Shown: positions 17,312 through 62,358 of the stretch, in pieces
Position numbering within the stretch: the first letter of the stretch is position 1
Layout: every line of letters begins with the position of its first letter
From: an uncultured Planctomycetia bacterium
GTDB taxonomy: Bacteria; Omnitrophota; Gorgyraeia; Tantalellales; Tantalellaceae
NCBI GenBank assembly: GCA_964421015.1
Contig: CAYQUS010000001.1
Coordinates: forward strand, 22,726-86,725
Length of the DNA stretch: 64,000 bases
Direction of reading: 5' to 3'
Notes under the pieces: model-generated
The model's database searches: none
Seen by the model: only the letters and a program-made list of their open reading frames with translations
What the model was told of the DNA's origin: nothing
Made by a program: the position numbers and the translations under genes

Positions 17312-17692
17312 TTTTCAAAGCGGGACTATAAGCCGGGTTCTGTGTCCGCCGTAGCGAACGGCAGCCATCCATCTAGGCGGGACATTACTGCCCCGCTCAA
17401 GCGACCTACCCGGGAGTTTCAGACCTTAAAAGGCCAGCGAGACTAGCCGCCTCGCGTGGCGATCATCCGTACGTTCCGGAATTCGCCGCTCCTCCCCTAT
17501 TTGGTTTTGCTCCGCGTAGAGATTGCCTCGTTTCACCTTTCCCTTGGGAAAGCTCGTCTCTGTTGCTCTTATCCTCACCTTACGGTGGACGGGTGTTACC
17601 CGCTACGCCGCTATGTGGAGCCCGGACTTTCCTCTCCGGAATTTTTCGCGCGCGAAAAATTTTCCGAAGCGACTGCCCGTCCCGCTTTGTTT
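17312..17692 (-). ncRNA. rnpB: RNase P RNA, bacterial type A
   Basis: The minus strand carries GGAAAGUCCGGGCUCC (the P4 5' strand) and ACAGAACCCGGCUUAU (the P4 3' strand). P1 pairs AAAGCGGGAC with GUCCCGCUUU, and P3 is the hairpin CUUCGGAAAAUUUUUCGCG/CGCGAAAAAUUCCGGAG. Length is about 380 nt. Track ORFs 17036-17446, 17456-17854 and 17523-18080 overlap it and are spurious. Confidence 0.85.
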
Positions 17693-19074: not shown

Positions 19075-19151
19075 TGGTGGGGGCACATGGACTTGAACCA
19101 TGGACCTACTGATTATGAGTCAGTTGCTCTAACCAGCTGAGCTATGCCCCC
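19075..19151 (-). tRNA. tRNA-Met/Ile2 (anticodon CAT), elongator type
   Basis: Minus strand GGGGGCAUAGCUCAGCUGGUUAGAGCAACUGACUCAUAAUCAGUAGGUCCAUGGUUCAAGUCCAUGUGCCCCCACCA. G1-C72 and a non-GGG anticodon stem make it elongator Met or lysidine Ile2. CCA encoded. Confidence 0.8.
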
Positions 19152-31099: not shown

Positions 31100-31175
31100 T
31101 GGTGGAGCAGATGGGATTCGAACCCACGACCCCCACGTTGCGAACGTGATGCTCTTCCAGCTGAGCTACTGCCCC
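31100..31175 (-). tRNA. tRNA-Ala (anticodon CGC)
   Basis: Minus strand GGGGCAGUAGCUCAGCUGGAAGAGCAUCACGUUCGCAACGUGGGGGUCGUGGGUUCGAAUCCCAUCUGCUCCACCA. The G3:U70 Ala identity pair is present; CCA encoded. Confidence 0.85.
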
Positions 31176-53491: not shown

Positions 53492-55570
53492 TCAGGCTTC
53501 CGCCTGTTTGATGCTCAGTTTTACCCTTCCCTGATCGTCAATGCCTATGAGTTTTACTCTTACTTCCTGACCTTCTTTTACGGCATCTTCAACATTTTTA
53601 ACGTACTTGGAGGATATCTCTGAAACATGAACAAGACCCTCCTGCCCGGGAAGGAATTCTACAAAGGCCCCAAAATTCATTATCTTGACCACTTTGGCGT
53701 TGTAGGTTTTCCCAACTTCAGGCTCTTCTATTATGGCCGACACCATAGCCACCGCCTTGTCCAATGACTCCTTATTGGCAGAAGCTATCTGGCAGGTCCC
53801 GTCATCTTCTATGTTAATATCCGCCCCTGTGGCCGCGATTATTCCCCTGATAACCTTGCCCCCCTGTCCTATAACGTCACGTATCTTATCTACCTTGACC
53901 ATTATGGTTACTATCCTCGGAGCCTCAGGTGATATGTCCGGCATCGGGGTCGGTATTGTTTTTTCCATGTGTGTCAAAAGCTCCATCCTGGCCTTGCGGG
54001 CCTGCTGGAAAGCTTCTTTCATTATGTTGTAGTCCACTCCTTTTATCTTGAGGTCCATCTGAAGCGCCGTTATGCCTTCTTTTGTTCCCGCTACTTTGAA
54101 GTCCATATCTCCCAGATGATCCTCGGCCCCGGCTATGTCAGTAAGAACGGCATATTTGTCGCCTTCCTTGACAAGACCCATTGCGATGCCGCTTACTGCC
54201 GACTTTACGGGCACACCCCCGGCCATAAGGCTCATAGATCCGGCGCATACCGTGGCCATGGAGCTCGATCCGTTGGATTCGAGTATCTCCGATACTAATC
54301 TTATCGTGTACGGGAATTTCTCTGCTACCGGAAGCACTGGAGCCAGCGCCTTCGCGGCAAGAGCCCCGTGTCCTATCTCGCGTCTTCCTGGTCCCCTCAT
54401 CGGACGGGTCTCCCCTACGCTAAAGGACGGAAAATTATAATGCAGCATAAAACTTCTAGTTGTTTCTCCCTCAAGAGCGTCTATCTTCTGCTCATCCGAA
54501 GCCGTGCCGAGGGTAAGCACCGAAAGAGCCTGCGTTTCGCCTCTTGTAAAAAGAGCGGAACCATGAGTTTTGGGAAGAAGATTTATCTCCGAGCTAAGGT
54601 TCCGTATCTGGTCGAAAGCCCTGCCATCTATCCTTTTTCGGTCGTTGAGTATAACATCACGCACTATTTTCTTTTCCACTTCCTCCACAGCCCCAGCCAC
54701 GGCTCCGGCCATACCTTTCGTGCCGTCCGGGTCTTCTTTTTTCAAAACATCGGCTTTCAGAGACTCAAGCTCCTCTATCCGCCTCTGTTTTTCCGGCAAA
54801 AGGAGCACGTTCTTTATTTTAGCGCCGAAACCTGACAATACTCTTTCCACCAGGGCTTCATCGGTCTTGTGTATGGTTATGTCTTCCCGTTTAGGTTTCC
54901 CTGCTTTAGTCCTTAGTTCTCTCTGTAAAGCAAGAAGGGGTTTAACTTTGTCGTGACCGAATCTAATTGCCTCCAGCATCCTGTCCTCTGGGATCTCCTC
55001 CCCTCCGGCCTCAAGCATGACAACGCTCTCGTCATTGGCCACCAGAACAAGGTCCAGAGAGCTCTTTTCCATCTCCTCGGCTGTCGGGTCAAGTATCATC
55101 TCTCCGTCTATCATCCCGACACGGGCTCCCGCAATAGGACCCTCGAACGGTATCTCTGAGATCATAAGAGCGCAGGATGCCCCGGTGAGAGCGAGAACAT
55201 CCGGATCATTCTGCCCGTCATAGGACAGAACTGTCGCTATTACCTGTACCTCATTAAGCATGCCTTTGGGAAAAAGCGGCCTTATGGGCCTGTCTATCAT
55301 CCTGGAAGTGAGTATGGCTTTTTCTGAAGGACGGCCTTCTCTTTTAAAGAATCCACCCGGTATCTTTCCCGCGGCGAACGTCTTTTCCTGGTACTCCACG
55401 GTAAGAGGGAAAAACCCCATATCGTCTTTTGTCTGTTTGGCGCAGCAACAGGTTACAAGAACAACCGTTCCGCCATACTGTACCGTAACCGAACCTCCTG
55501 CCTGTTTCGCCAATTTGCCGGTGGAAACTATTATGTCCTCACGGCCGTACTTCACTCTTAATTCAGTCAT
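53492..55570 (-). CDS. pnp: polyribonucleotide nucleotidyltransferase (PNPase)
   Basis: Two RNase PH domains plus KH and S1 domains, 692 aa, directly downstream of rpsO. Confidence 0.95.
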   Translation of the reverse strand: MTELRVKYGREDIIVSTGKLAKQAGGSVTVQYGGTVVLVTCCCAKQTKDDMGFFPLTVEYQEKTFAAGKIPGGFFKREGRPSEKAILTSRMIDRPIRPLFPKGMLNEVQVIATVLSYDGQNDPDVLALTGASCALMISEIPFEGPIAGARVGMIDGEMILDPTAEEMEKSSLDLVLVANDESVVMLEAGGEEIPEDRMLEAIRFGHDKVKPLLALQRELRTKAGKPKREDITIHKTDEALVERVLSGFGAKIKNVLLLPEKQRRIEELESLKADVLKKEDPDGTKGMAGAVAGAVEEVEKKIVRDVILNDRKRIDGRAFDQIRNLSSEINLLPKTHGSALFTRGETQALSVLTLGTASDEQKIDALEGETTRSFMLHYNFPSFSVGETRPMRGPGRREIGHGALAAKALAPVLPVAEKFPYTIRLVSEILESNGSSSMATVCAGSMSLMAGGVPVKSAVSGIAMGLVKEGDKYAVLTDIAGAEDHLGDMDFKVAGTKEGITALQMDLKIKGVDYNIMKEAFQQARKARMELLTHMEKTIPTPMPDISPEAPRIVTIMVKVDKIRDVIGQGGKVIRGIIAATGADINIEDDGTCQIASANKESLDKAVAMVSAIIEEPEVGKTYNAKVVKIMNFGAFVEFLPGQEGLVHVSEISSKYVKNVEDAVKEGQEVRVKLIGIDDQGRVKLSIKQAEA

Positions 55571-55620
55571 CTTTTTCCCTTTTTTAAATTGCGTTTATAA
55601 TACCCTCCGACATCATTGCC

Positions 55621-55887
55621 TTACTTCCTGAGACCAAGCTTACCTATGACCTCTGTATATTTTGCCTCGTCAACGGACTTCAAGTATTTCAAAAGCTTCC
55701 GCCTTTTGTTGACAAGCATCAGAAGGCCTCTTCGTGAATGATGGTCTTTTTTGTGCTTTTTGAAGTGTTCGGTAAGACCGTTTATTCTTTCCGTAAGGAT
55801 GGCTATCTGCACCTCAGAAGACCCTGTATCGGTGGAGTGTTTCTGAAAACCCGCCATTGCCTCTTTCTTAACCTTAGCTGTGAGCAT
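55621..55887 (-). CDS. rpsO: 30S ribosomal protein S15
   Basis: 88 aa with [42 protein letters not shown]. Confidence 0.95.
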
Positions 55888-55965
55888 ATTCTATCACCTC
55901 CCCTCTTTGTGATGGGATAAACATCTCTGTCCCAAAAACCTTACATGCAATTATATTGAATCATA

Positions 55966-56967
55966 TCATATGAAAAGACGCTTGTAAACCGTATTCTGGC
56001 AAGTCCCCATACTCCTACCCATTGAACTCTTAAGAAAAGACGGGCAAATCCTCAAGGAAGCTTTTATGTCTCCTTTTATCTTATCCCTGAGTTCATCTCG
56101 TGAGGAAAACTTCATTTCCCCCCTAAGCCTCTTTATAAAGAAAACCTCCAGATCCATACCGTAAATATCTCCCTTGAAACCTATTATGTGGGCTTCTATT
56201 ACAGGCTCCTCTCTGCGCCTGTCCCTGCCGTAAAAAGTCGGTTTATACCCGATATTCAGCACTCCGGGAAAGATCTCTCCACCGACGTCCACCGCGACCG
56301 CGTAAACCCCCACCGGAGGTATGACTTCATGATGCGGGTCTATATTCGCGGTAGGAACACCTATCTCTCTGCCGATACTGTCGCCCTCTACAACGGTTCC
56401 GAGAACAGATACGGGCCTCGAAAGGAGCTTTCGCGCCTTTTCCAGCTCTCCCCGGGAAATAAGCTCCCTCACCCATGTGCTGCTCACCACCCTTCCGGAT
56501 CTCCTGACCGGCCCGACTATTTCGACATCCACCCCGTGTTCCGCGGCCAGTTTTTTTAATCCGGTTGTTCCTTCCGAGCCGCCTCTTCCGAAATTAAAAT
56601 TTTCACCGACAAAGATCTTCCTGGCGTTCAAGGCCTTAACAAGCACCCTGTCCACAAAATCCCCCGGCCCCATATCGGCAAGGTAACGGGAGAATTTTAC
56701 AACGACTGCCGCGTCCACCCCCATGATCTGGAAAAGCCTTAACCGGTGGGAAAGCGACATGATCCGCGGAGGCCCTTTCCTCGGGTTCAACACCGCCTGA
56801 GGATGAGGATCGAACGTAAGCACTACCTTGTCATCGCCGGAACGTGACGAGATCATTTTTTGCACAACTTTTCGATGCCCGAGATGCACCCCGTCAAACA
56901 CCCCTATCGCCACAACGGGATCTTTCAGATGTTTACCGGCGCTCCTATATCCGTGCAAGATTTTCAT
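55966..56967 (-). CDS. ribF: bifunctional riboflavin kinase / FMN adenylyltransferase
   Basis: FAD synthetase N-terminus (AIGVFDGVHLGH) and a C-terminal riboflavin kinase (PTAN..). Confidence 0.9.
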   Translation of the reverse strand: MKILHGYRSAGKHLKDPVVAIGVFDGVHLGHRKVVQKMISSRSGDDKVVLTFDPHPQAVLNPRKGPPRIMSLSHRLRLFQIMGVDAAVVVKFSRYLADMGPGDFVDRVLVKALNARKIFVGENFNFGRGGSEGTTGLKKLAAEHGVDVEIVGPVRRSGRVVSSTWVRELISRGELEKARKLLSRPVSVLGTVVEGDSIGREIGVPTANIDPHHEVIPPVGVYAVAVDVGGEIFPGVLNIGYKPTFYGRDRRREEPVIEAHIIGFKGDIYGMDLEVFFIKRLRGEMKFSSRDELRDKIKGDIKASLRICPSFLKSSMGRSMGTCQNTVYKRLFI

Positions 56968-57655
56968 TAAGTTCTTCCCTGTTCATTCTAAGGATCTCGC
57001 TGATCGTTACGGCATTTTCGATTTTAAAATTGCCGCTGGAAAGCCTGCGCAGTTCCACCAGATGCCCCCCCGAACCTGCCTTTTCCCCTATGTCATCCGC
57101 GAGCTGTCTTATGTACGTACCTTTCGTACATAGGACCTCGAACTCTATCTCAGGCAGATCTACGGAAATTATATCCAGGCTTTTTACGGTAACTTTTACC
57201 GGAAGTCTCTCTACGGTCTTCCCCTGCCGGGCAAGTTTATAAAGCCGTTTGCCCTTCACTTTTTTTGCCGAGAACATAGGCGGCACCTGATCTATCTCTC
57301 CGACAAAACTTTCCATTACCCTTTTTATCCCGGCTATATCCTGGGACACTGCTTTTTCGGATATGATCTTTCCGGAACTGTCGCCGCTGTCGGTACGTTC
57401 CCCGAGCCTGATCTTGGCGCGGTATTTTTTATCTTCTCCTGAAAGCTGTGAGGAAAGCCTGGTCGCCGCCCCCAGAAGAAGCACAAGAACACCTGTAGCA
57501 TCCGGATCAAGCGTTCCCGCATGGCCCACCTTCCTGATCTTGAAACGTTTCCTTACAAGATCCACTACATCATGGCTTGTCATGGCCTTATCTTTATCCA
57601 CGACAAGGATCCCCGATATGTCCAGGTCATTCTGAGATCCGGGACCGATAATCAT
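56945..57655 (-). CDS. truB: tRNA pseudouridine(55) synthase
   Basis: GILVVDK...TSHDVV...KVGHAGTLDPDATGVL carries the catalytic Asp. The start was set to the ATG at 57655, which overlaps the upstream stop as ATGA. Confidence 0.85.
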   Translation of the reverse strand: MIIGPGSQNDLDISGILVVDKDKAMTSHDVVDLVRKRFKIRKVGHAGTLDPDATGVLVLLLGAATRLSSQLSGEDKKYRAKIRLGERTDSGDSSGKIISEKAVSQDIAGIKRVMESFVGEIDQVPPMFSAKKVKGKRLYKLARQGKTVERLPVKVTVKSLDIISVDLPEIEFEVLCTKGTYIRQLADDIGEKAGSGGHLVELRRLSSGNFKIENAVTISEILRMNREELNENLARI

Positions 57656-59010
57656 CTGGAGCTCTCCAGCACATCCTTGACCGCTGATAGGACCGCGGCC
57701 TTCGCGATCTCTATGGATCCTTCTATAACGCAACCCGAAGCCTTGGGATGCCCGCCGCCCCCGAATCTGGCCGCAAGAGAGTTAACGTCACATTTTCCGG
57801 AAGAACGGAAACTGACATTCACCCTGCCTTCAAAACTTGAGTCTTCCTTGAAAAAAACTGATATCTCGACGCCCTTGACCGCCCTGGGAAAGTTTATGAA
57901 CTCGTCGGTCGATGGGATATCTACCTTCTCCTCCCGGCACATCTGCCTTGTCATGCTTATTATCGCCACCGCCCCGGTCTCAAAAAGTTCAAGAGTAGAA
58001 AGCACTTTGCCGAGAAGGCGTATTTCCTCCGGGCTTTTGCTCTCGTATATGCCGCGGTGGACCATGTTGGGCCTCACTCCTCTTGAGAGCAGATGCCCGG
58101 CGGCCTCATGAGTGGCCCTTGAAGTATTCTCGTAATTGAACATTCCCGTGTCCGTAAGTATGGCGGTGTACAGGGCTTCCGCTACCTCTTCAGTGATTTC
58201 CACACCCATCTCCACGGCTATGTTGTATATCATCTCTCCGGCGGAACTCATACCGGACTCCACCCAGTTGACATCCCCGAAATATTCGTTGCTCACATGA
58301 TGATCGATGTTTATCGTGAATTCCTCACCGCTCAGGGACCGCTGTACTTTCCCGGCTCTTTCTCTTACGGGACAATCCAGCATTATGAGGGTTCTCGGAA
58401 CAAAATCCCCGGGGAGTTCCCTCATTACGGACCCGGAACCCCTCAAGAACCTGAGGTTATCGGGTACGGGGTCCTGCTGCACCATGACGACATTTTTTCC
58501 CATTTTCTCAAGAATTCCGAAAAGAGCTATCTGGCTTCCTACCGAATCGCCCTCCGGATTGACATGTGCGGTTATCATAAAATCATCTTTTTGCTTCAGA
58601 GCGTCTATTACTTTCATCATCGCTTCCCTGTCCATGACCTTCCCTTCCATTTTTATTCGCTGGAACTCAGCGTGATCCTTCTCTACTGTTTCAAAAAGAG
58701 CGTCTATCCTTTGCCAGCTTTTTTTATCGTTTTCCTCAAGAAAAGTAAGATGCGGGACGGCCTTCATCTCAACCCTTGAGGCCAGTTCTGTCCTTATGAA
58801 GCCGGCCGCGTGTTTAAGGCTTTTCAAGAGCCGCGAGCTGTCCCCTGCGTCCTCCGGGAAAATACAGTAAACCCTTGCCGTTTTAAGATCTTTAGTCACC
58901 TCGACACGCTCTACCGTAACACTGCTTATAAGCGGATCGTTCAGTTCGCTCTGGATGACCATCGATATTTCTCTCTTGAGGGTTTCCGAAACCCTTTCGA
59001 TTCGGCTCAT
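57652..59010 (-). CDS. rbfA: ribosome-binding factor A fused in-frame to a DHH/DHHA1 phosphoesterase (NrnA-like)
   Basis: Residues 1 to about 120 are RbfA-like (MSRIERVSETLKREISMVI...VTVERVEVTKDLKTARVY...). The remaining roughly 330 aa are DHH (ITAHVNPEGDSVGS, a DHH motif) plus DHHA1 (GGGHPKASG). The two parts form one uninterrupted ORF. The start was set to the ATG at 59010, overlapping the upstream TAA by 1 nt. Confidence 0.7.
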   Translation of the reverse strand: MSRIERVSETLKREISMVIQSELNDPLISSVTVERVEVTKDLKTARVYCIFPEDAGDSSRLLKSLKHAAGFIRTELASRVEMKAVPHLTFLEENDKKSWQRIDALFETVEKDHAEFQRIKMEGKVMDREAMMKVIDALKQKDDFMITAHVNPEGDSVGSQIALFGILEKMGKNVVMVQQDPVPDNLRFLRGSGSVMRELPGDFVPRTLIMLDCPVRERAGKVQRSLSGEEFTINIDHHVSNEYFGDVNWVESGMSSAGEMIYNIAVEMGVEITEEVAEALYTAILTDTGMFNYENTSRATHEAAGHLLSRGVRPNMVHRGIYESKSPEEIRLLGKVLSTLELFETGAVAIISMTRQMCREEKVDIPSTDEFINFPRAVKGVEISVFFKEDSSFEGRVNVSFRSSGKCDVNSLAARFGGGGHPKASGCVIEGSIEIAKAAVLSAVKDVLESSR

Positions 59011-59822
59011 TATGACCTCTTCCTTTCCCGGATCACCTTTTCCAGGAACTCCATTTCCTCTCCCAGAAGGCTTTCCAGAATCGCCATGCATTCTCTTCTT
59101 TTCTTTTCAGCCACAAGAAGTGACCACTCGTTCACTATCTTGCTTTTCCTCATACACCTAAGAGCTCCCTCCTTAACGGCTTTCTTAAGCAGCTCCGCGG
59201 TTTTCCCCTCTATACCGAAAGAAAGCCGTGCCGCGAACCTCGCCGCCCTGAATATCCTCGCCGGATCGTCCATAAAGCTTTTATCATGCAGCACTCTCAG
59301 GAGCTTATTTTTCAAATCCGAAAGTCCGGAGCTTACATCCACTATCTCGCCAGCGTCGTTGCCGTTAAGACCCATCGCCATAGCGTTCACGGTAAAATCC
59401 CTCCTCAGAAGATCGTGCCGGAGAGTGCTGGGTCTTACGCGCGGCAACGCCCCGCAGGAAACATAATCCTCCTCCCTGGCCATGGCTATATCAATCACGA
59501 AATCCCGTTCCCATGGGGCAAAAAAACTTCTCCTCCCCACGGTAACCTTGGCTGTCCCGAACCTGCCGTATTCTCTGATCCCGGAAACACCATCTGAGGA
59601 AAGGCTTCTGGCAAGAGCTGAGGCATCTCCTTCCGTGACTATGTCCAGATCCGAAGTTTTTCTGCCCAAGAGCATGTCCCTCACGGCTCCGCCGACAAGA
59701 AAAACCCTGATACCTTTAAGTTCTCCCTCCTCAGCGGCCTTATCTAAAATCGACAACGCCCGGCTGCCGACTGTCCGCCGCAGAGAACTATGGATCTTTT
59801 CCTCTAGGCAAGAGGTCATCAT
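59010..59822 (-). CDS. tRNA nucleotidyltransferase / poly(A) polymerase family protein, head and neck only
   Basis: Pol-beta-like NTase head (FLVGGAVRDMLLGRKTSDLDIV) and an RRDFTVNAMA motif. It ends at 270 aa, lacking the body/tail and HD regions of full-length CCA enzymes. Confidence 0.65.
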   Translation of the reverse strand: MMTSCLEEKIHSSLRRTVGSRALSILDKAAEEGELKGIRVFLVGGAVRDMLLGRKTSDLDIVTEGDASALARSLSSDGVSGIREYGRFGTAKVTVGRRSFFAPWERDFVIDIAMAREEDYVSCGALPRVRPSTLRHDLLRRDFTVNAMAMGLNGNDAGEIVDVSSGLSDLKNKLLRVLHDKSFMDDPARIFRAARFAARLSFGIEGKTAELLKKAVKEGALRCMRKSKIVNEWSLLVAEKKRRECMAILESLLGEEMEFLEKVIRERKRS

Positions 59823-60709
59823 CCTCCCCTGGGATGAAAGTTCTCATGGACTTTTTTCAGTTTTTCGCTGTTCACATGAGTGTATATCTGGGTGGTGGAA
59901 ATGTCAGAATGACCCAGCATTTCCTGTACTCCCCTCAGATCAGCCCCTCCCTCCAGAAGATGGGTCGCAAAAGAGTGTCTTAACGTGTGCGGAGTAATAT
60001 GCTTCTTGATCCCGGAGGCACGGGCATACTTCTGGATCATTTTCCAAAGGCTCTGCCTGGATATTTTTTTACCGAGACGAGATAGAAAAAGATGTTCGTC
60101 GGAGGGGCTATCCTGCCCGGAGGATCTCCCGCGCGCCTCGAGATACCTGGTTATGGCCTCGCCGGCGGCCTTCCCGAATGGGACAATGCGTTCCTTACCG
60201 CCTTTCCCGTAGCACTTCACAAAGCTGTAATCCACATTGACTTCGGCCCGTTTTAGATCCGACACCTCAGAGACCCTCAACCCCGAGGCGTACATAATTT
60301 CAAGAATAGCTTTATCCCTGAGATCCATTATCTTTCTCCCCTTGGGCGCTTCCAGAAGCGTCTCTACCTCTTCTTTTGAAAGAACGTCCGGGATGGTCTT
60401 CCATGTTTTCGGAGAGTCCACCAGGGAAGCCGCGTTGTCGCGGACCACCTGCTCGGCCACAAGGAATTTCCAGAAGGTTTTCACCGCTGCCAGGTTACGG
60501 GCTATGGAGGAGGCATTGAGCCCCAGGTCCTTAAGGTACATCAGAAACGACAGAATATCGTCCCTCGTAGCTGAGCTGAAATCCTTTTTGGATCTCTCAA
60601 GGAAATCCGATAGCTTGTTCAGGTCGGAGAAATAGGATTTTACGGTATTCGGGCTCACGCCCCTTTCCGCCTCAAGGAAATAGATGAAGTTCTTTATGTG
60701 ATCAGTCAT
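59819..60709 (-). CDS. xerD: tyrosine recombinase XerD/XerC
   Basis: N-terminal core-binding region (PNTVKSYFSDL) and catalytic RHSFATHLLEGGADLRGVQEMLGHSDISTTQIYTHV with the Tyr nucleophile. Confidence 0.85.
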   Translation of the reverse strand: MTDHIKNFIYFLEAERGVSPNTVKSYFSDLNKLSDFLERSKKDFSSATRDDILSFLMYLKDLGLNASSIARNLAAVKTFWKFLVAEQVVRDNAASLVDSPKTWKTIPDVLSKEEVETLLEAPKGRKIMDLRDKAILEIMYASGLRVSEVSDLKRAEVNVDYSFVKCYGKGGKERIVPFGKAAGEAITRYLEARGRSSGQDSPSDEHLFLSRLGKKISRQSLWKMIQKYARASGIKKHITPHTLRHSFATHLLEGGADLRGVQEMLGHSDISTTQIYTHVNSEKLKKVHENFHPRGG

Positions 60710-61379
60710 GATTTCCGTTCTGTTCCCGGGAACAAGGGCTTATGTCCCCGAATTCCGAACTGATATAACACCTCGCGCTGCCTACGTCGGTGCGGCACCC
60801 ATGCCCGGGGAATACCATGAAATGGTCAGGAAATTTCATAAGCTTCCTGACTATGCTGTCCAGAATGGTACCTATGTCCCCTCCCGGAAGGTCTGTGCGT
60901 CCTATGCCCTCGAAAAAAAGAGTGTCGCCGGTGAACAGATTGCTCCCGCATTTCAACGATATTCCTCCCGGAGTGTGCCCCGGGGTGTGGATCACTTCCA
61001 GAAAAAACTTCCCGAAACTCAAAATTTCCCCCTCTTCAAGAGGACTGTGAGGGCCTTCCAAGCGCACCGGGAAACCGGTAAAAAAAGACATGTTCTTGAC
61101 GGGATCCGAAAGACAGGATTCATCCAGAGGATGTATGCGCGCCGGAACTTTAAAACAAGAGTTTCCGGCGATATGATCCGCATGCCCGTGGGTATTGATG
61201 AGGTGACATATCTCCACCCCGGTGTCCTCGATGGCTTTCACAATTGAGCCGTCGGGCCATCCCGGATCTATGATAGCTCCTTTCAGCGAATCCGGATCAT
61301 ACACCAGATAGCAATTGGCCTGAAGCGGCCCCAGGACAAAGGTCTTTATCCGGACTTTATCATTCTTTTCGGAACTCAT
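60702..61379 (-). CDS. MBL-fold metallo-hydrolase (glyoxalase II-like)
   Basis: THGHADH motif and additional His/Asp ligands, about 225 aa. Confidence 0.7.
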   Translation of the reverse strand: MSSEKNDKVRIKTFVLGPLQANCYLVYDPDSLKGAIIDPGWPDGSIVKAIEDTGVEICHLINTHGHADHIAGNSCFKVPARIHPLDESCLSDPVKNMSFFTGFPVRLEGPHSPLEEGEILSFGKFFLEVIHTPGHTPGGISLKCGSNLFTGDTLFFEGIGRTDLPGGDIGTILDSIVRKLMKFPDHFMVFPGHGCRTDVGSARCYISSEFGDISPCSREQNGNHD

Positions 61380-61869
61380 CCCTTATCTCCCCGGTTACTT
61401 CCCGGTAGGAAAATTTGTCCTTTATCTCCTTCCCGAGAAGTTCCATTGTCCGGGTTATCCTTACCCTGTTACCCTGAGTGAGATTCTGCTTACGCATATC
61501 CTGCTCGACCTCTGCCATTTTATCTATCAAAAGCTGCAGCTCGTCGCCCCTTTCATCCACGAGCATGCCCCTCATATCGTAAAGGTTGGATATCTCCTGC
61601 TCTATGGAGACTAAAAGTTTTTTCTCATTGGTCATCCTCTGATCGGAAACAAGATCCATGAATTCCTTGTGCCAGTTCTTCCAGAAAATATACCTCTTGG
61701 TATAAAGCTCCATGCTCGGTTTAACATCGTACTCTCTTACGGGGATATACCTTTTAGGCGCTGTTTGCTGCTTGGACTTGCGTATGAACTTAGACTTGAG
61801 ATCGGCACATCCGCTCAGCGTTAAAGCGCAAAAAAGAACGGTAAAAAAAATATAGAACGTTTTTCTCAT
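61360..61869 (-). CDS. lipoprotein, function unknown
   Basis: Lipobox LTLSGC after a hydrophobic N-terminus, then a charged coiled-coil-like body. Confidence 0.5.
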   Translation of the reverse strand: MRKTFYIFFTVLFCALTLSGCADLKSKFIRKSKQQTAPKRYIPVREYDVKPSMELYTKRYIFWKNWHKEFMDLVSDQRMTNEKKLLVSIEQEISNLYDMRGMLVDERGDELQLLIDKMAEVEQDMRKQNLTQGNRVRITRTMELLGKEIKDKFSYREVTGEIRDEFRKE

Positions 61870-62207: not shown

Positions 62208-62284
62208 TGGTCGGGGCGCTGGGATTTGAACCCAGGACCTCCACGTCCCGAACGTGGCGCGCTAGCCAAACTGCGCTACGCCCC
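62208..62284 (-). tRNA. tRNA-Pro (anticodon CGG)
   Basis: Minus strand GGGGCGUAGCGCAGUUUGGCUAGCGCGCCACGUUCGGGACGUGGAGGUCCUGGGUUCAAAUCCCAGCGCCCCGACCA. Anticodon loop uuCGGga; CCA encoded. Confidence 0.85.
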
Positions 62285-62358
62285 GATGCCATGTTAACAT
62301 AATAACCGCCGCTATGATATCATCGTGCCGAAAAGTCGTCAATGATTATCGGCCTGAA

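Follow-up and report, generated by a model that had tools for sequence, protein, structure and literature searches.

The closest described counterparts of the locus reported here are the gene pairs MSMEG_2629/2630 of Mycobacterium smegmatis and Rv2838c/Rv2837c (CnpB) of Mycobacterium tuberculosis, which code for RbfA and an NrnA-type protein in the order found here (Srivastav et al. 2014, PMC4081065). That study describes the pair as co-transcribed within an infB-rbfA-nrnA-truB operon, upstream of truB, and places the DHH protein in an rbfA-linked group. These 'NrnA'' proteins form a distinct clade; in M. smegmatis, the gene of the clade member is transcribed together with infB and rbfA (PMC4081065). 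The rbfA-nrnA neighbourhood was marked in 2014 as a hallmark of this separate nanoRNase clade. Two studies (PMC4081065, PMC9757072) describe enzymes of the NrnA type as dimeric, with a closed cleft that favours 2-5-mers; the polarity of these enzymes is disputed, being given as 3'-5' in the former and as 5'-3' in the latter. As for RbfA, its KH domain holds nucleotides 1530-1536 of 16S rRNA in the exit channel, and the authors of that work speculate on an unknown RbfA partner during 3'-end trimming (PMC8177701).

Organization of the rbfA::nrnA locus

In the 64-kb stretch of DNA that we analyzed (here called the window), rbfA and nrnA are joined on the minus strand in a single reading frame, which starts with ATG at 59010, ends with TGA at 57654-57652 and contains no internal stop, both in the sequence and in the list of open reading frames. 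The continuous 452-aa ORF without a stop between the domains, as described in the initial annotation, is thus borne out, and both peptides quoted there, ITAHVNPEGDSVGS and GGGHPKASG, lie within it. The features of the locus are as follows.

59016..59025, minus strand: Shine-Dalgarno-like AAGGAAGAGG, 5 nt upstream of the fusion ATG (upstream 20-mer CGGGAAAGGAAGAGGTCATA)
59010..59822, minus strand: upstream neighbour, a minimal 270-aa nucleotidyltransferase of the PolyA_pol/CCA type, head and neck only
59008..59012, minus strand: TAATG stop/start overlap of the upstream nucleotidyltransferase with the fusion gene (sequence)
57652..59010, minus strand: rbfA::nrnA fusion ORF, 452 codons plus TGA stop, complete (sequence and ORF list)
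58726..59010, minus strand: RbfA (type-II KH-like) domain, residues 1-95 (Pfam, TIGR00082, PDB, AF2)
58630..58725, minus strand: linker, residues 96-127, from the acidic C-terminal tail of stand-alone RbfA (alignment)
58638..58647, minus strand: Shine-Dalgarno-like GAAGGGAAGG within the linker, spanning codons E122-G123-K124 and one more nt, 3 nt upstream of the Met126 ATG
58633..58635, minus strand: Met126 ATG, the ancestral nrnA start codon, now in frame (alignment)
57655..58629, minus strand: NrnA-type DHH/DHHA1 phosphoesterase module, residues 128-452 (Pfam, NCBIfam, PDB, Foldseek)
58159..58578, minus strand: DHH catalytic domain, residues 145-284 (Pfam)
57664..57906, minus strand: DHHA1 substrate-binding domain with GGGH motif, residues 369-449 (Pfam)
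57652..57655, minus strand: ATGA start/stop overlap of the fusion gene with truB (sequence)
53492..57655, minus strand: downstream operon genes together (Pfam)
56945-57655, minus strand: truB (Pfam; TIGR00431, 251.7 bits)
55966-56967, minus strand: ribF (Pfam)
55621-55887, minus strand: rpsO (Pfam)
53492-55570, minus strand: pnp (Pfam)

The gene is tightly coupled on both sides, as had been noted before, with the TAATG (59012-59008) and ATGA (57655-57652) overlaps both seen in the sequence; read from the ATGA start codon, TruB comprises 236 aa. Downstream, the gene order truB, ribF, rpsO, pnp is identical in all related loci. Upstream, the orthologues of the nucleotidyltransferase in relatives measure 883 aa (with DHH-DHHA1-CBS-PolyA_pol architecture), 619, 439 or 274 aa. 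We rejected a 479-codon version of the fusion starting from ATG 59091, which would share 82 nt with the upstream gene; the Shine-Dalgarno-like sequence sits upstream of 59010, and the longer start is unsupported because the orthologues all begin at the equivalent of 59010, an M-(S/G)-R position. No second copy of rbfA or nrnA was found within the window. At the junction, a consensus scan gave no hit to an internal promoter or terminator on the minus strand; its overall counts were at chance level.

The two halves of the product

The N-terminal half was readily recognized as RbfA. Residues 3-106 match Pfam RBFA (PF02033) with an E value of 3.8e-25 (88.7 bits against a cutoff of 34.7), the TIGR00082 equivalog cutoff is passed (81.4 bits against 51.15), and residues 3-120 align with E. 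coli RbfA (PDB 7afl_V, E 3e-15). The AF2 model of the domain (pLDDT 83-94) shows the alpha-beta-beta-alpha-alpha-beta order of a type-II KH-like fold, with elements H3-21, E32-38, E44-50, H58-79 and E87-92. The AxG helix-kink-helix motif is present as A-A-G-F, 'HAAGFIR' being aligned to E. coli 'EASGFIR'. RbfA is expected to be a single domain of ~95-135 aa, whereas here it makes up the N-terminal part of a much longer protein (452 aa). The RbfA half would be expected to keep its canonical activity, that is, binding to 30S or pre-30S particles and 16S rRNA maturation.

The C-terminal half carries Pfam DHH (PF01368, residues 145-284, E 5.6e-16, 59.4 bits against a cutoff of 28.1) and DHHA1 (PF02272, residues 369-449, E 3.7e-10, 40.6 bits against 25.9). 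DHH motifs I-IV are complete, motif I being of the DxD type (HxxPEGD). The catalytic residues H149, D155, D212, D236-H237-H238, D287 and G418-H421 show no variation among 98 relatives, and the same DHH/GGGH residues are invariant across 32 highly diverse fusions. The closest solved sequence match of residues 128-452 is TmPDE (TM1595; E 6.5e-44, ~30% identity), which was also matched by structure in Foldseek (5o7f, E 2e-30, TMt 0.91, rmsd 2.2 A); further Foldseek matches of the DHH part to nanoRNases are 3w5w, 5jju and 5j21, of which 5jju is the mycobacterial Rv2837c (E 3.6e-25, TMt 0.85). The score against NCBIfam NF053633 (bifunctional oligoribonuclease/PAP phosphatase NrnA) was 144.5 bits and did not reach the equivalog cutoff of 350, and we therefore refer to this half as NrnA-like (TmPDE/Rv2837c-like) rather than as a certified equivalog of Bacillus subtilis NrnA. 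It would be expected to hydrolyse short oligoribonucleotides (2-5-nt RNA), pApA or pAp.

Occurrence of the fusion

The fusion architecture recurs in at least 19 independent Candidatus Omnitrophota protein clusters, from 100% down to 45% identity. These 19 clusters measure 446-461 aa and all come from the same locus in NCBI, JGI, ENA and Logan assemblies; the identical protein P0001 lies on a 524-kb NCBI contig, and the 18 other fusion clusters are 45-83% identical. PF02033, PF01368 and PF02272 on one ORF are kept in the orthologues. A comparison of orthologous loci, suggested in the initial annotation as a check, recovered the same fused frame in these clusters. Besides the Omnitrophota clusters we found ~57 further, divergent fusion clusters, and among the best 150 clusters (50% identity) there were 29 fusion representatives. 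Outside Omnitrophota, Bacillota (L089), Actinomycetota (L066) and one further lineage (L090) have fusions as well, each inside a canonical infB-...-truB-rpsO-pnp operon. Since fusions are also found in these other lineages, the fusion event is recurrent.

Separate genes are nevertheless the common state. Of the best 80 GTDB genome loci, 66 have rbfA and the DHH gene next to each other as individual genes upstream of truB and 3 have them fused, so most lineages do without the fusion; the premise that the two genes lie side by side elsewhere therefore held. In the unfused loci among these 80, rbfA and nrnA usually overlap by stop and start codons, and in the unfused sister loci L003 and L007 the overlap amounts to 14 nt and 1 nt, respectively, with an RbfA tail homologous to the linker. 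A tblastn search in which query residues 1-450 were matched had made nearly all GTDB loci appear fused, a reading that we discarded after analysis of frames and stops, which showed mostly adjacent genes in different frames.

In a neighbor-joining (NJ) tree of the NrnA part, calculated without bootstrap, the Omnitrophota fusions take several positions amid unfused relatives, and their monophyly was not upheld; some of the '330-aa' neighbours in this tree may be truncated ORFs on short contigs. Because of the missing bootstrap and these possibly truncated ORFs, we limit independent origin to comparisons between phyla; at that level, other bacterial groups have acquired the join on their own. We found no description of an RbfA-NrnA fusion in the literature searched, which included few subscription-journal papers. 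The fusion proteins are already present in databases (NCBI, JGI), and since these ~450-aa proteins carry the single-domain name 'RbfA' or 'NrnA', one of the two functions is hidden each time.

The linker and its internal ATG

The junction at which the initial annotation had advised re-examination (58650-58750) lies in the linker (58725-58630), which aligns to the RbfA tail of L003, where the genes are separate ('...IDRLFGKIEEE...EGEEG...'). A missed stop or a frameshift error in sequencing or assembly could in principle merge two genes at such a point: the fused and unfused states are only a few nucleotides apart, and some of the fusion clusters consist of one sequence from a short contig. However, the frame is kept in all of the at least 19 Omnitrophota clusters, which come from independent projects and assemblers and in some cases from up to 10 contigs, and the ~57 divergent clusters add to these. 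Moreover, pN in the linker (0.09-0.29) is far below pS (0.57-0.82), which indicates that the linker is translated in the fusion frame, and when the window is aligned with L004, L009 and L008, the linker indels have lengths divisible by three. The same holds along the whole gene, with pN of 0.09-0.35 against pS of 0.57-0.95 across the RbfA part, linker and NrnA part alike. Cluster recurrence and pN/pS through the linker effectively refute an artefact, whose chance we consider negligible. The in-frame RbfA-DHH/DHHA1 fusion proposed in the initial annotation is thus almost certainly real, conserved in orthologues and under purifying selection through its junction.

Two features of the linker bear on whether stand-alone RbfA (and NrnA) might be regenerated by programmed frameshifting or proteolytic cleavage, which appears very improbable. 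Both alternative frames stop soon after the RbfA domain, so that a shift would give an RbfA-sized product, but there is no conserved slippery heptamer: the A-rich 'CGA ATA AAA ATG' of the window reads AGA ACA AGA in L004, AGA ACA AAA in L009 and AGA GTA CAA in L008, and programmed frameshifting was rejected on this ground. The linker is predicted by AF2 to be exposed, as cleavage would demand, but a protease site is without support.

It had also been considered that an internal start with its own ribosome binding site (RBS) might indicate two separate proteins. Such a start exists, in the form of the Met126 ATG, which aligns to Met1 of stand-alone NrnA proteins ('MD...'), and of the preceding GAAGGGAAGG, the RBS of the ancestral nrnA, either a relic or still active. 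Separate proteins do not follow, since the fusion frame stays open: no stop codon precedes the Met126 ATG, so this start cannot abolish the fusion and contributes at most a free NrnA product. In divergent fusions (P0015-P0018, P0038, L010, L066) Met126 is lost, and because internal Met and Shine-Dalgarno (SD) sequence are absent there, NrnA is producible only as a fusion.

That Met126 still initiates in the clade of the window, giving a free 36-kDa NrnA in addition to, and not in place of, the 51-kDa fusion, we rate as possible but rather unlikely. GAAGG(R) is kept in the window, L004, L009 and L008 (~60-100% protein identity) as GAAGG(R)-N6-ATG, at a spacing typical of SD sequences, and matches the pre-nrnA SD region of the unfused L003 and L007. 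In the window, SD-like 5-mers precede 40% of presumed starts against 12% of internal ATGs, and some pairs have a somewhat lower pS in the linker (0.57-0.65) than in its flanks (0.75-0.95), as calculated from only ~17 synonymous sites. However, the motif codes for a conserved M-E-G, so constraint on the protein could account for its conservation, and the comparison comprises four DNA sequences only, with a likelihood ratio of only ~3. In addition, SD, ATG or both are missing in the fusions L001, L005, L006, L010 and L066.

Origin and possible function

We propose that the ancestor had rbfA adjoining a gene of the NrnA type, as in most present relatives, with the two genes in different frames and sharing 1-14 nt where the stop of one meets the start of the other. 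A short insertion or deletion there would have removed the rbfA stop and brought the nrnA ATG into frame. The resulting 452-residue product combines an intact RbfA KH-like domain with a nanoRNase/pAp-phosphatase-type domain that is catalytically intact by motif, connected by ~30 residues of the former RbfA tail, predicted as a low-confidence helix or flexible tether. In this way the enzyme may be delivered 1:1 to the site of 16S end trimming, where its role could be to clear short RNA products, or to finish them, beside the PNPase encoded in the same operon. The architecture itself implies that a nanoRNase-type domain is tethered to a 30S maturation factor; what the tethering does functionally is a prediction. 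The fusion hints at a shared job of the two halves at the maturing small ribosomal subunit. Against this, the 2-5-mer preference and closed cleft of NrnA-type dimers are a better fit to general nanoRNA clearance than to a ribosome-bound 16S tail, and the sub-cutoff NrnA score of the DHH half also counts on the other side.

The same events may, however, have had no functional consequence. A chance indel could have joined translationally coupled neighbours, with the halves acting independently across a flexible linker, RbfA on the 30S subunit and NrnA as a general cytosolic nanoRNase/pAp phosphatase. A single indel would be enough, given the stop/start overlap in most relatives, and because overlapping neighbours fuse easily, recurrence may reflect opportunity and not selection for tethering. 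The fusions are scattered amid unfused relatives in the NJ tree and uncommon among GTDB species (3 of the best 80 loci), and their linkers differ widely in length and sequence between lineages. The AF2 model, in which two confident domains flank a linker that forms a long helix (residues 96-122) of low pLDDT (53-66) and the pTM is only 0.67, suggests no fixed packing between the domains. On the other hand, the fusion has persisted over deep divergence (45-100% identity in the Omnitrophota clade, 47-82% in the Bacillota group), several lineages have no internal start and so tether the whole NrnA output of the gene, and the adjacency of rbfA and nrnA across many phyla already favours a functional link (PMC4081065). 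A neutral join is a serious contender that we would not bet on, and we lean, with reserve, toward a genuine gene fusion maintained by selection. Whether the coupling of the two halves is functionally adaptive is, in our estimate, an even call.

Fusions that are independent and long-lived, as seen here in at least three phyla, are a classic 'Rosetta stone' signal of cooperating proteins, and in several fusion lineages the nuclease is obtainable only attached to RbfA. This raises the question of whether a tethered DHH nuclease acts at the 16S 3' end, and if so in rRNA end trimming or in local clearance of nanoRNA. A far-reaching answer would make the tethered domain a dedicated ribosome-biogenesis nuclease and a functional analogue of Pno1-Nob1. 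RbfA would clamp 16S nucleotides ~1530-1536 in the mRNA exit channel while the exonuclease trims the last nucleotides of the 3' trailer or destroys excised fragments in situ, and the DHH domain would be the 'still unknown partner' of RbfA of Schedlbauer et al. (PMC8177701). If true, such a role would account for the position of nrnA directly behind rbfA in so many phyla. We regard a dedicated role of this kind as improbable.

Comparison with known systems

At the 3' end of eukaryotic 18S rRNA, the KH protein Pno1 grips the rRNA end in the exit channel and the nuclease Nob1 finishes it, an analogy that has been drawn for RbfA (PMC8177701). The fusion would resemble this pair in setting a nuclease-family domain beside a KH protein. 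As a PIN endonuclease, Nob1 has no relation to DHH enzymes, and we know of no activity of a DHH module on 16S rRNA.

Another DHH/DHHA1 module on an RNA-end-processing protein is found in the Aquifex-type A-adding tRNA nucleotidyltransferase (NF041569, DHH-DHHA1-CBS-PolyA_pol, ~880 aa), which has a different fusion partner and domain order from rbfA::nrnA. Residues 146-431 of the fusion match its DHH part, and an orthologue lies directly upstream of rbfA in L003, L006 and L008. Compared with this enzyme, the 270-aa nucleotidyltransferase of the window has lost DHH-DHHA1-CBS and most of the body and tail.

The best solved relatives of residues 128-452, TmPDE of Thermotoga maritima and the Bacteroides fragilis nanoRNase (PDB 5o1u, 3w5w), share the DHH motifs and GGGH with the fusion but are stand-alone proteins of ~320-340 aa without an RbfA module. 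E. coli and Thermus thermophilus RbfA (PDB 7afl_V, 1kkg, 2dyj) share with it the order of secondary-structure elements, the AxG kink motif and the following Phe. Canonical RbfA consists of a single domain (95-133 aa in all) whose C-terminal tail is short and flexible, whereas in the fusion this tail runs on into a 325-residue enzyme.

The Omnitrophota operon differs from the mycobacterial one in having no upstream nusA-infB, in place of which xerD and the CCA-type nucleotidyltransferase are found. It agrees with the 'NrnA'' subfamily, as delimited by Srivastav et al. (2014, PMC4081065), in that nrnA directly follows rbfA in a translation-factor operon. The mycobacterial rbfA and nrnA are separate genes, whereas here no stop codon lies between them and both families are made as one polypeptide.

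A single reading frame joining two intact modules

The initial annotation had described an in-frame RbfA-DHH/DHHA1 fusion that is tightly coupled to the genes on both sides. Our analysis bears this out, since the frame is uninterrupted, all three Pfam domains score above their curated cutoffs and both proposed overlaps are exact.

Features of the fusion gene and its product (window coordinates)
59010 (ATG) to 57654-57652 (TGA), minus strand: rbfA::nrnA fusion ORF, 452 codons, zero internal stops
5 nt upstream of ATG 59010, minus strand: Shine-Dalgarno-like element, AAGGAAGAGG
59012-59008, minus strand: TAATG overlap with the upstream gene
57655-57652, minus strand: ATGA overlap with truB
Residues 3-106: RBFA domain (Pfam, E 3.8e-25)
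Residues 145-284: DHH domain (Pfam, E 5.6e-16)
Residues 369-449: DHHA1 domain (Pfam, E 3.7e-10)

The fusion is followed by truB, ribF, rpsO and pnp and preceded by a PolyA_pol-type nucleotidyltransferase gene (270 aa) and xerD. An alternative ORF of 479 codons, starting at 59091 and thus 82 nt within the upstream gene, was rejected because the orthologues all begin at the equivalent of 59010, which is preceded by the Shine-Dalgarno (SD)-like element.

Each half belongs to a well-known family. Although it is not a single-domain protein, the N-terminal part has the profile, fold and motif of RbfA: it passes the NCBIfam rbfA model TIGR00082 (81.4 bits versus a cutoff of 51), aligns with E. coli RbfA (7afl_V, E 3e-15) and retains the AxG kink motif with the subsequent Phe ("HAAGFIR"). 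The C-terminal part has the domains, motifs and fold of DHH/DHHA1 nanoRNase-like proteins, and all of its catalytic residues (HxxPEGD, D212, D236-H237-H238, D287 and GGGH at 418-421) are invariant among 98 relatives. Its match to the NCBIfam NrnA equivalog model (residues 128-437) reached 144.5 bits, far under the 350-bit cutoff, and we therefore term this half NrnA-like (TmPDE/Rv2837c-like) rather than NrnA.

In an AlphaFold2 model built from an alignment of 98 sequences (mean pLDDT, 86.5), both the RbfA module, with its alpha-beta-beta-alpha-alpha-beta order, and the DHH/DHHA1 module were confident, and a long helix between them (96-122) had a pLDDT of 53-66. The pTM was just 0.67, which suggests that the modelled inter-domain packing is not fixed. 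The product is hence a single polypeptide whose RbfA module and DHH/DHHA1 active site are both intact and are connected by ∼30 poorly ordered residues.

Conservation and selection across the junction

A search of ∼5.8 billion proteins returned an identical protein on a 524-kb NCBI contig and 18 further clusters from NCBI, JGI, ENA and Logan assemblies (446-461 aa; same three Pfam domains; identity 83% down to 45%), with those bearing names belonging to Candidatus Omnitrophota. Comparison with orthologous loci, which the initial annotation had proposed as a check, revealed the same fusion in the same neighborhood (xerD - nucleotidyltransferase - (DUF503) - fusion - truB - ribF - rpsO - pnp) on all six contigs on which fusions were placed. 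When the window gene was codon-aligned with three fusion orthologues of its clade (L004, L009 and L008), synonymous sites were saturated (pS 0.57-0.95) and non-synonymous differences were low in the RbfA part (0.20-0.35), the linker (0.09-0.29) and the NrnA part (0.12-0.23), and the sole linker indel among the four genes was one whole codon. This low non-synonymous change and the whole-codon indel indicate that the junction is translated in the fusion frame and is under purifying selection. Given the many independent clusters, the shared locus and selection through the junction, we rejected an assembly or sequencing artefact.

Origin of the linker from overlapping genes

Aligning 18 fusions with stand-alone relatives revealed three parts, namely, an RbfA core (residues 1 to ∼95), a ∼30-residue linker with the pattern "IDxxFExxExE...MEG-x-VMD" and the NrnA module, with Met126 of the fusion matching Met1 of stand-alone NrnA proteins ("MD..."). 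In L003, an unfused Omnitrophota relative, the 128-aa rbfA product ends in "...IDRLFGKIEEELGIEPEGEEGIEDEQR*" and the end of its gene shares 14 nt with the start of nrnA, which lies in a different frame. In L007, likewise unfused and sister to the window's fusion clade in an unbootstrapped neighbor-joining (NJ) tree, the two genes share just one base (TAATG). The Met126/Met1 alignment and these overlapping genes indicate that the linker descends from the RbfA C-terminal tail. In the window, the stretch ATG GAA GGG AAG GTC ATG GAC preserves the ancestral nrnA start codon together with its purine-rich ribosome-binding site, and losing a few bases where the rbfA stop meets the nrnA start would have sufficed to create the fusion.

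One product or two

The initial annotation had regarded an internal start with its own ribosome-binding site as a sign of two separate proteins. A candidate site does exist in the linker, but it does not undo the fusion, since with no stop between the halves every ribosome initiating at 59010 yields the fused protein.

Candidate internal start
GAAGGGAAGG, 3 nt, Met126 ATG, minus strand: SD-like site in the linker

That some free NrnA is made besides the fusion in the window's clade seems unlikely to us, and such a product would in any case leave the fusion intact. The element GAAGG(R)-N6-ATG is kept in all four available DNA sequences of this clade, and in this window SD-like 5-mers are found ahead of 40% of the presumed starts (n = 45) versus 12% of the internal in-frame ATGs (n = 426). 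The resulting likelihood ratio is nevertheless just ∼3, and the motif doubles as codons for the conserved residues M-E-G. Among other fusions, those of L005, L006, L010 and L066 have lost the internal ATG, the SD or both, and that of L001 retains the ATG with the SD absent, so that in such lineages synthesis of the nuclease is possible only as part of the fusion with RbfA. Programmed frameshifting that would regenerate free RbfA was rejected, as no slippery site is conserved; stops lie close by in both other frames near the junction.

Distribution and independent origins

We scanned GTDB (one genome per species), checking the frame and stop codons in each of the best 80 loci. The two genes were adjacent but separate in 66 of these, so the premise of the initial annotation that separate neighbors are the norm is correct. 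In these 66 loci, labeled as Omnitrophota, Planctomycetota, Syntrophales/Deltaproteobacteria, Clostridia, Nitrospirae, Verrucomicrobia and Atribacterota, rbfA and nrnA nearly always occupy different frames, and rbfA ends at the nrnA start or shortly beyond it. Automated pairing gave no rbfA with nrnA in 11 of the 80, although in two of them (L017 and L052) rbfA is in fact next to nrnA, the two matches simply sharing a few bases. The fused loci numbered just three: L009 (Omnitrophota, 73% identity), L010 (a partial locus) and L066.

Even so, taken as a raw count, fusions are not uncommon. When 1.84 billion representatives of 50%-identity clusters were searched exhaustively with HMMER, the best 150 matches included 29 full-length fusions (435-479 aa, 30-45% identical to the query). 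A profile built from a diverse set of 32 fusions brought in another 28 clusters, defined at 90% identity, of which two are NCBI records under the name "MAG: 30S ribosome-binding factor RbfA [Bacillota bacterium]". Two lineages from these searches, L089 and L090, were placed on contigs, and both have the fusion in the classical operon.

Fusions outside Omnitrophota (truB next in each, stop and start overlapping)
L066, 3992-5341: high-GC Actinomycetota MAG, 449 aa
L089, 6001-7353: Bacillota MAG, 450 aa; rimP-ylxR-L7Ae-infB-fusion-truB-ribF-rpsO-pnp
L090, 6001-7326: unnamed lineage on 13 contigs, 441 aa; rimP-nusA-ylxR-infB-DUF503-fusion-truB-rpsO-pnp

The differing operon contexts, base composition and phyla, together with interspersed unfused relatives, show that Omnitrophota, Bacillota and Actinomycetota, at the least, acquired the fusion independently. 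The Omnitrophota fusions are also scattered in the NJ tree; since this tree is unbootstrapped, we do not press that scatter as independent origins.

Neighboring genes and other features of the window

Additional features
59010-59822, minus strand: PolyA_pol/CCA-type nucleotidyltransferase
59819-60709 and upstream, minus strand: xerD, a metallo-beta-lactamase (MBL)-fold gene, a conserved unknown gene and an acylphosphatase gene, preceding the rbfA operon
56945-56967, minus strand: ribF start, 23 nt within the truB 3' end
61360-61869, minus strand: 169-aa ORF, no Pfam match, lipoprotein-like N terminus MRKTFYIFFTVLFCALTLSGC...
17313-17688, minus strand: bacterial class A RNase P RNA gene, full length, 228 bits
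18899-18975, 19075-19151, 31100-31175 and 62208-62285, all minus strand: tRNA genes (Val-CAC, Met-CAT, Ala-CGC, Pro-CGG)

The nucleotidyltransferase is strikingly reduced. Orthologues at the same position have 881-884, 619, 439 or 274 aa, the longest (L003 2628-5279, L006 3308-5953, L008 2325-4976, L010 335-2989) having the DHH-DHHA1-CBS-PolyA_pol architecture of Aquifex-type A-adding enzymes (NF041569). The 270- to 274-aa form of the window and its nearest relative retains only the head, neck and last ∼15 residues, implying an internal deletion. The gene evolves fast (43% identity to L004, versus 78% for the adjacent fusion), and it may encode a minimized or decaying enzyme. All four window tRNA genes encode the 3'-terminal CCA, so that CCA addition would be needed only for repair and a full CCA-adding enzyme would be less required, consistent with the shrunken protein. 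In several Omnitrophota relatives, the 881- to 884-aa enzyme and rbfA-nrnA, fused or unfused, place DHH/DHHA1 in two consecutive genes, so that this locus repeatedly joins a DHH module to RNA-3'-end enzymes.

A 93-aa DUF503 gene lies directly upstream of rbfA in many relatives (L001 5704-5985, L003 5296-5577, L007 4334-4615, L090 5709-5990), also in an infB operon from outside Omnitrophota. The window (with none between 59010 and 59822), L004, L006 and L008 lack the gene, and its loss tracks fusion imperfectly. Unlike in Bacillota and other phyla (L089 and L090), rimP-nusA-infB is not upstream of rbfA in Omnitrophota, and infB must therefore be elsewhere. The truB/ribF overlaps (23-38 nt in L001, L003-L006 and L008) look like a conserved translational-coupling feature. 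The 169-aa ORF keeps its size (169-176 aa) and its position between the acylphosphatase and MBL-fold genes in all related loci examined. Among the GTDB records, several with Omnitrophota-like rbfA-nrnA loci (L010, L018, L019, L029, L038, L053 and L057) are labeled "uncultured Planctomycetia/Planctomycetales" (binchicken co-assemblies), labels that may be coarse or mis-assigned.

Possible function and comparison with known systems

The rbfA-nrnA gene pair and its synteny are already published, and the fused architecture is present in databases, under names that refer to only one of its halves. Our literature search, whose coverage was incomplete, found no published description of an RbfA-DHH-DHHA1 fusion; an earlier mention is possible. 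The fusion is not surprising as an evolutionary event. Its recurrence provides a Rosetta-stone link that opens the long-standing rbfA-nrnA association to experiment.

RbfA is a late 30S assembly factor. According to one study, it covers the 16S 3' end in part only, and the authors speculated that an unidentified partner aids in protecting or positioning the 3' end during trimming (PMC8177701; review, PMC9032327). The fusion could deliver a nanoRNase to the pre-30S particle, 1:1 and close to the 16S 3' end, where the tethered enzyme could clear short oligonucleotides remaining after the 3' exonucleases; the gene for PNPase sits four genes downstream. More speculatively, it could itself finish the 16S 3' end. 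A serious rival, which we consider quite possible if not favored, is a neutral fusion whose halves act independently: overlapping neighbors fuse easily, rbfA and nrnA stay separate in most lineages, the enzyme family prefers 2- to 5-mers and the linker appears flexible.

The rbfA-linked DHH proteins form a separate clade, NrnA' (PMC4081065), whose M. smegmatis member shares a transcript with infB and rbfA. That report describes this protein as a dimer with 3'-5' exonuclease activity on short RNA and DNA and as a pAp phosphatase, whereas later work found that B. subtilis NrnA acts 5'-3' on short RNAs (PMC9757072); on these accounts, polarity in the NrnA family appears unsettled. Structurally, the DHH/DHHA1 part of the fusion superposes on Thermotoga TmPDE/TM1595 (E 2e-30, TMt 0.91, rmsd 2.2 Å), and it also matches the B. 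fragilis nanoRNase, M. tuberculosis Rv2837c, Borrelia DhhP and Bacillus NrnA.
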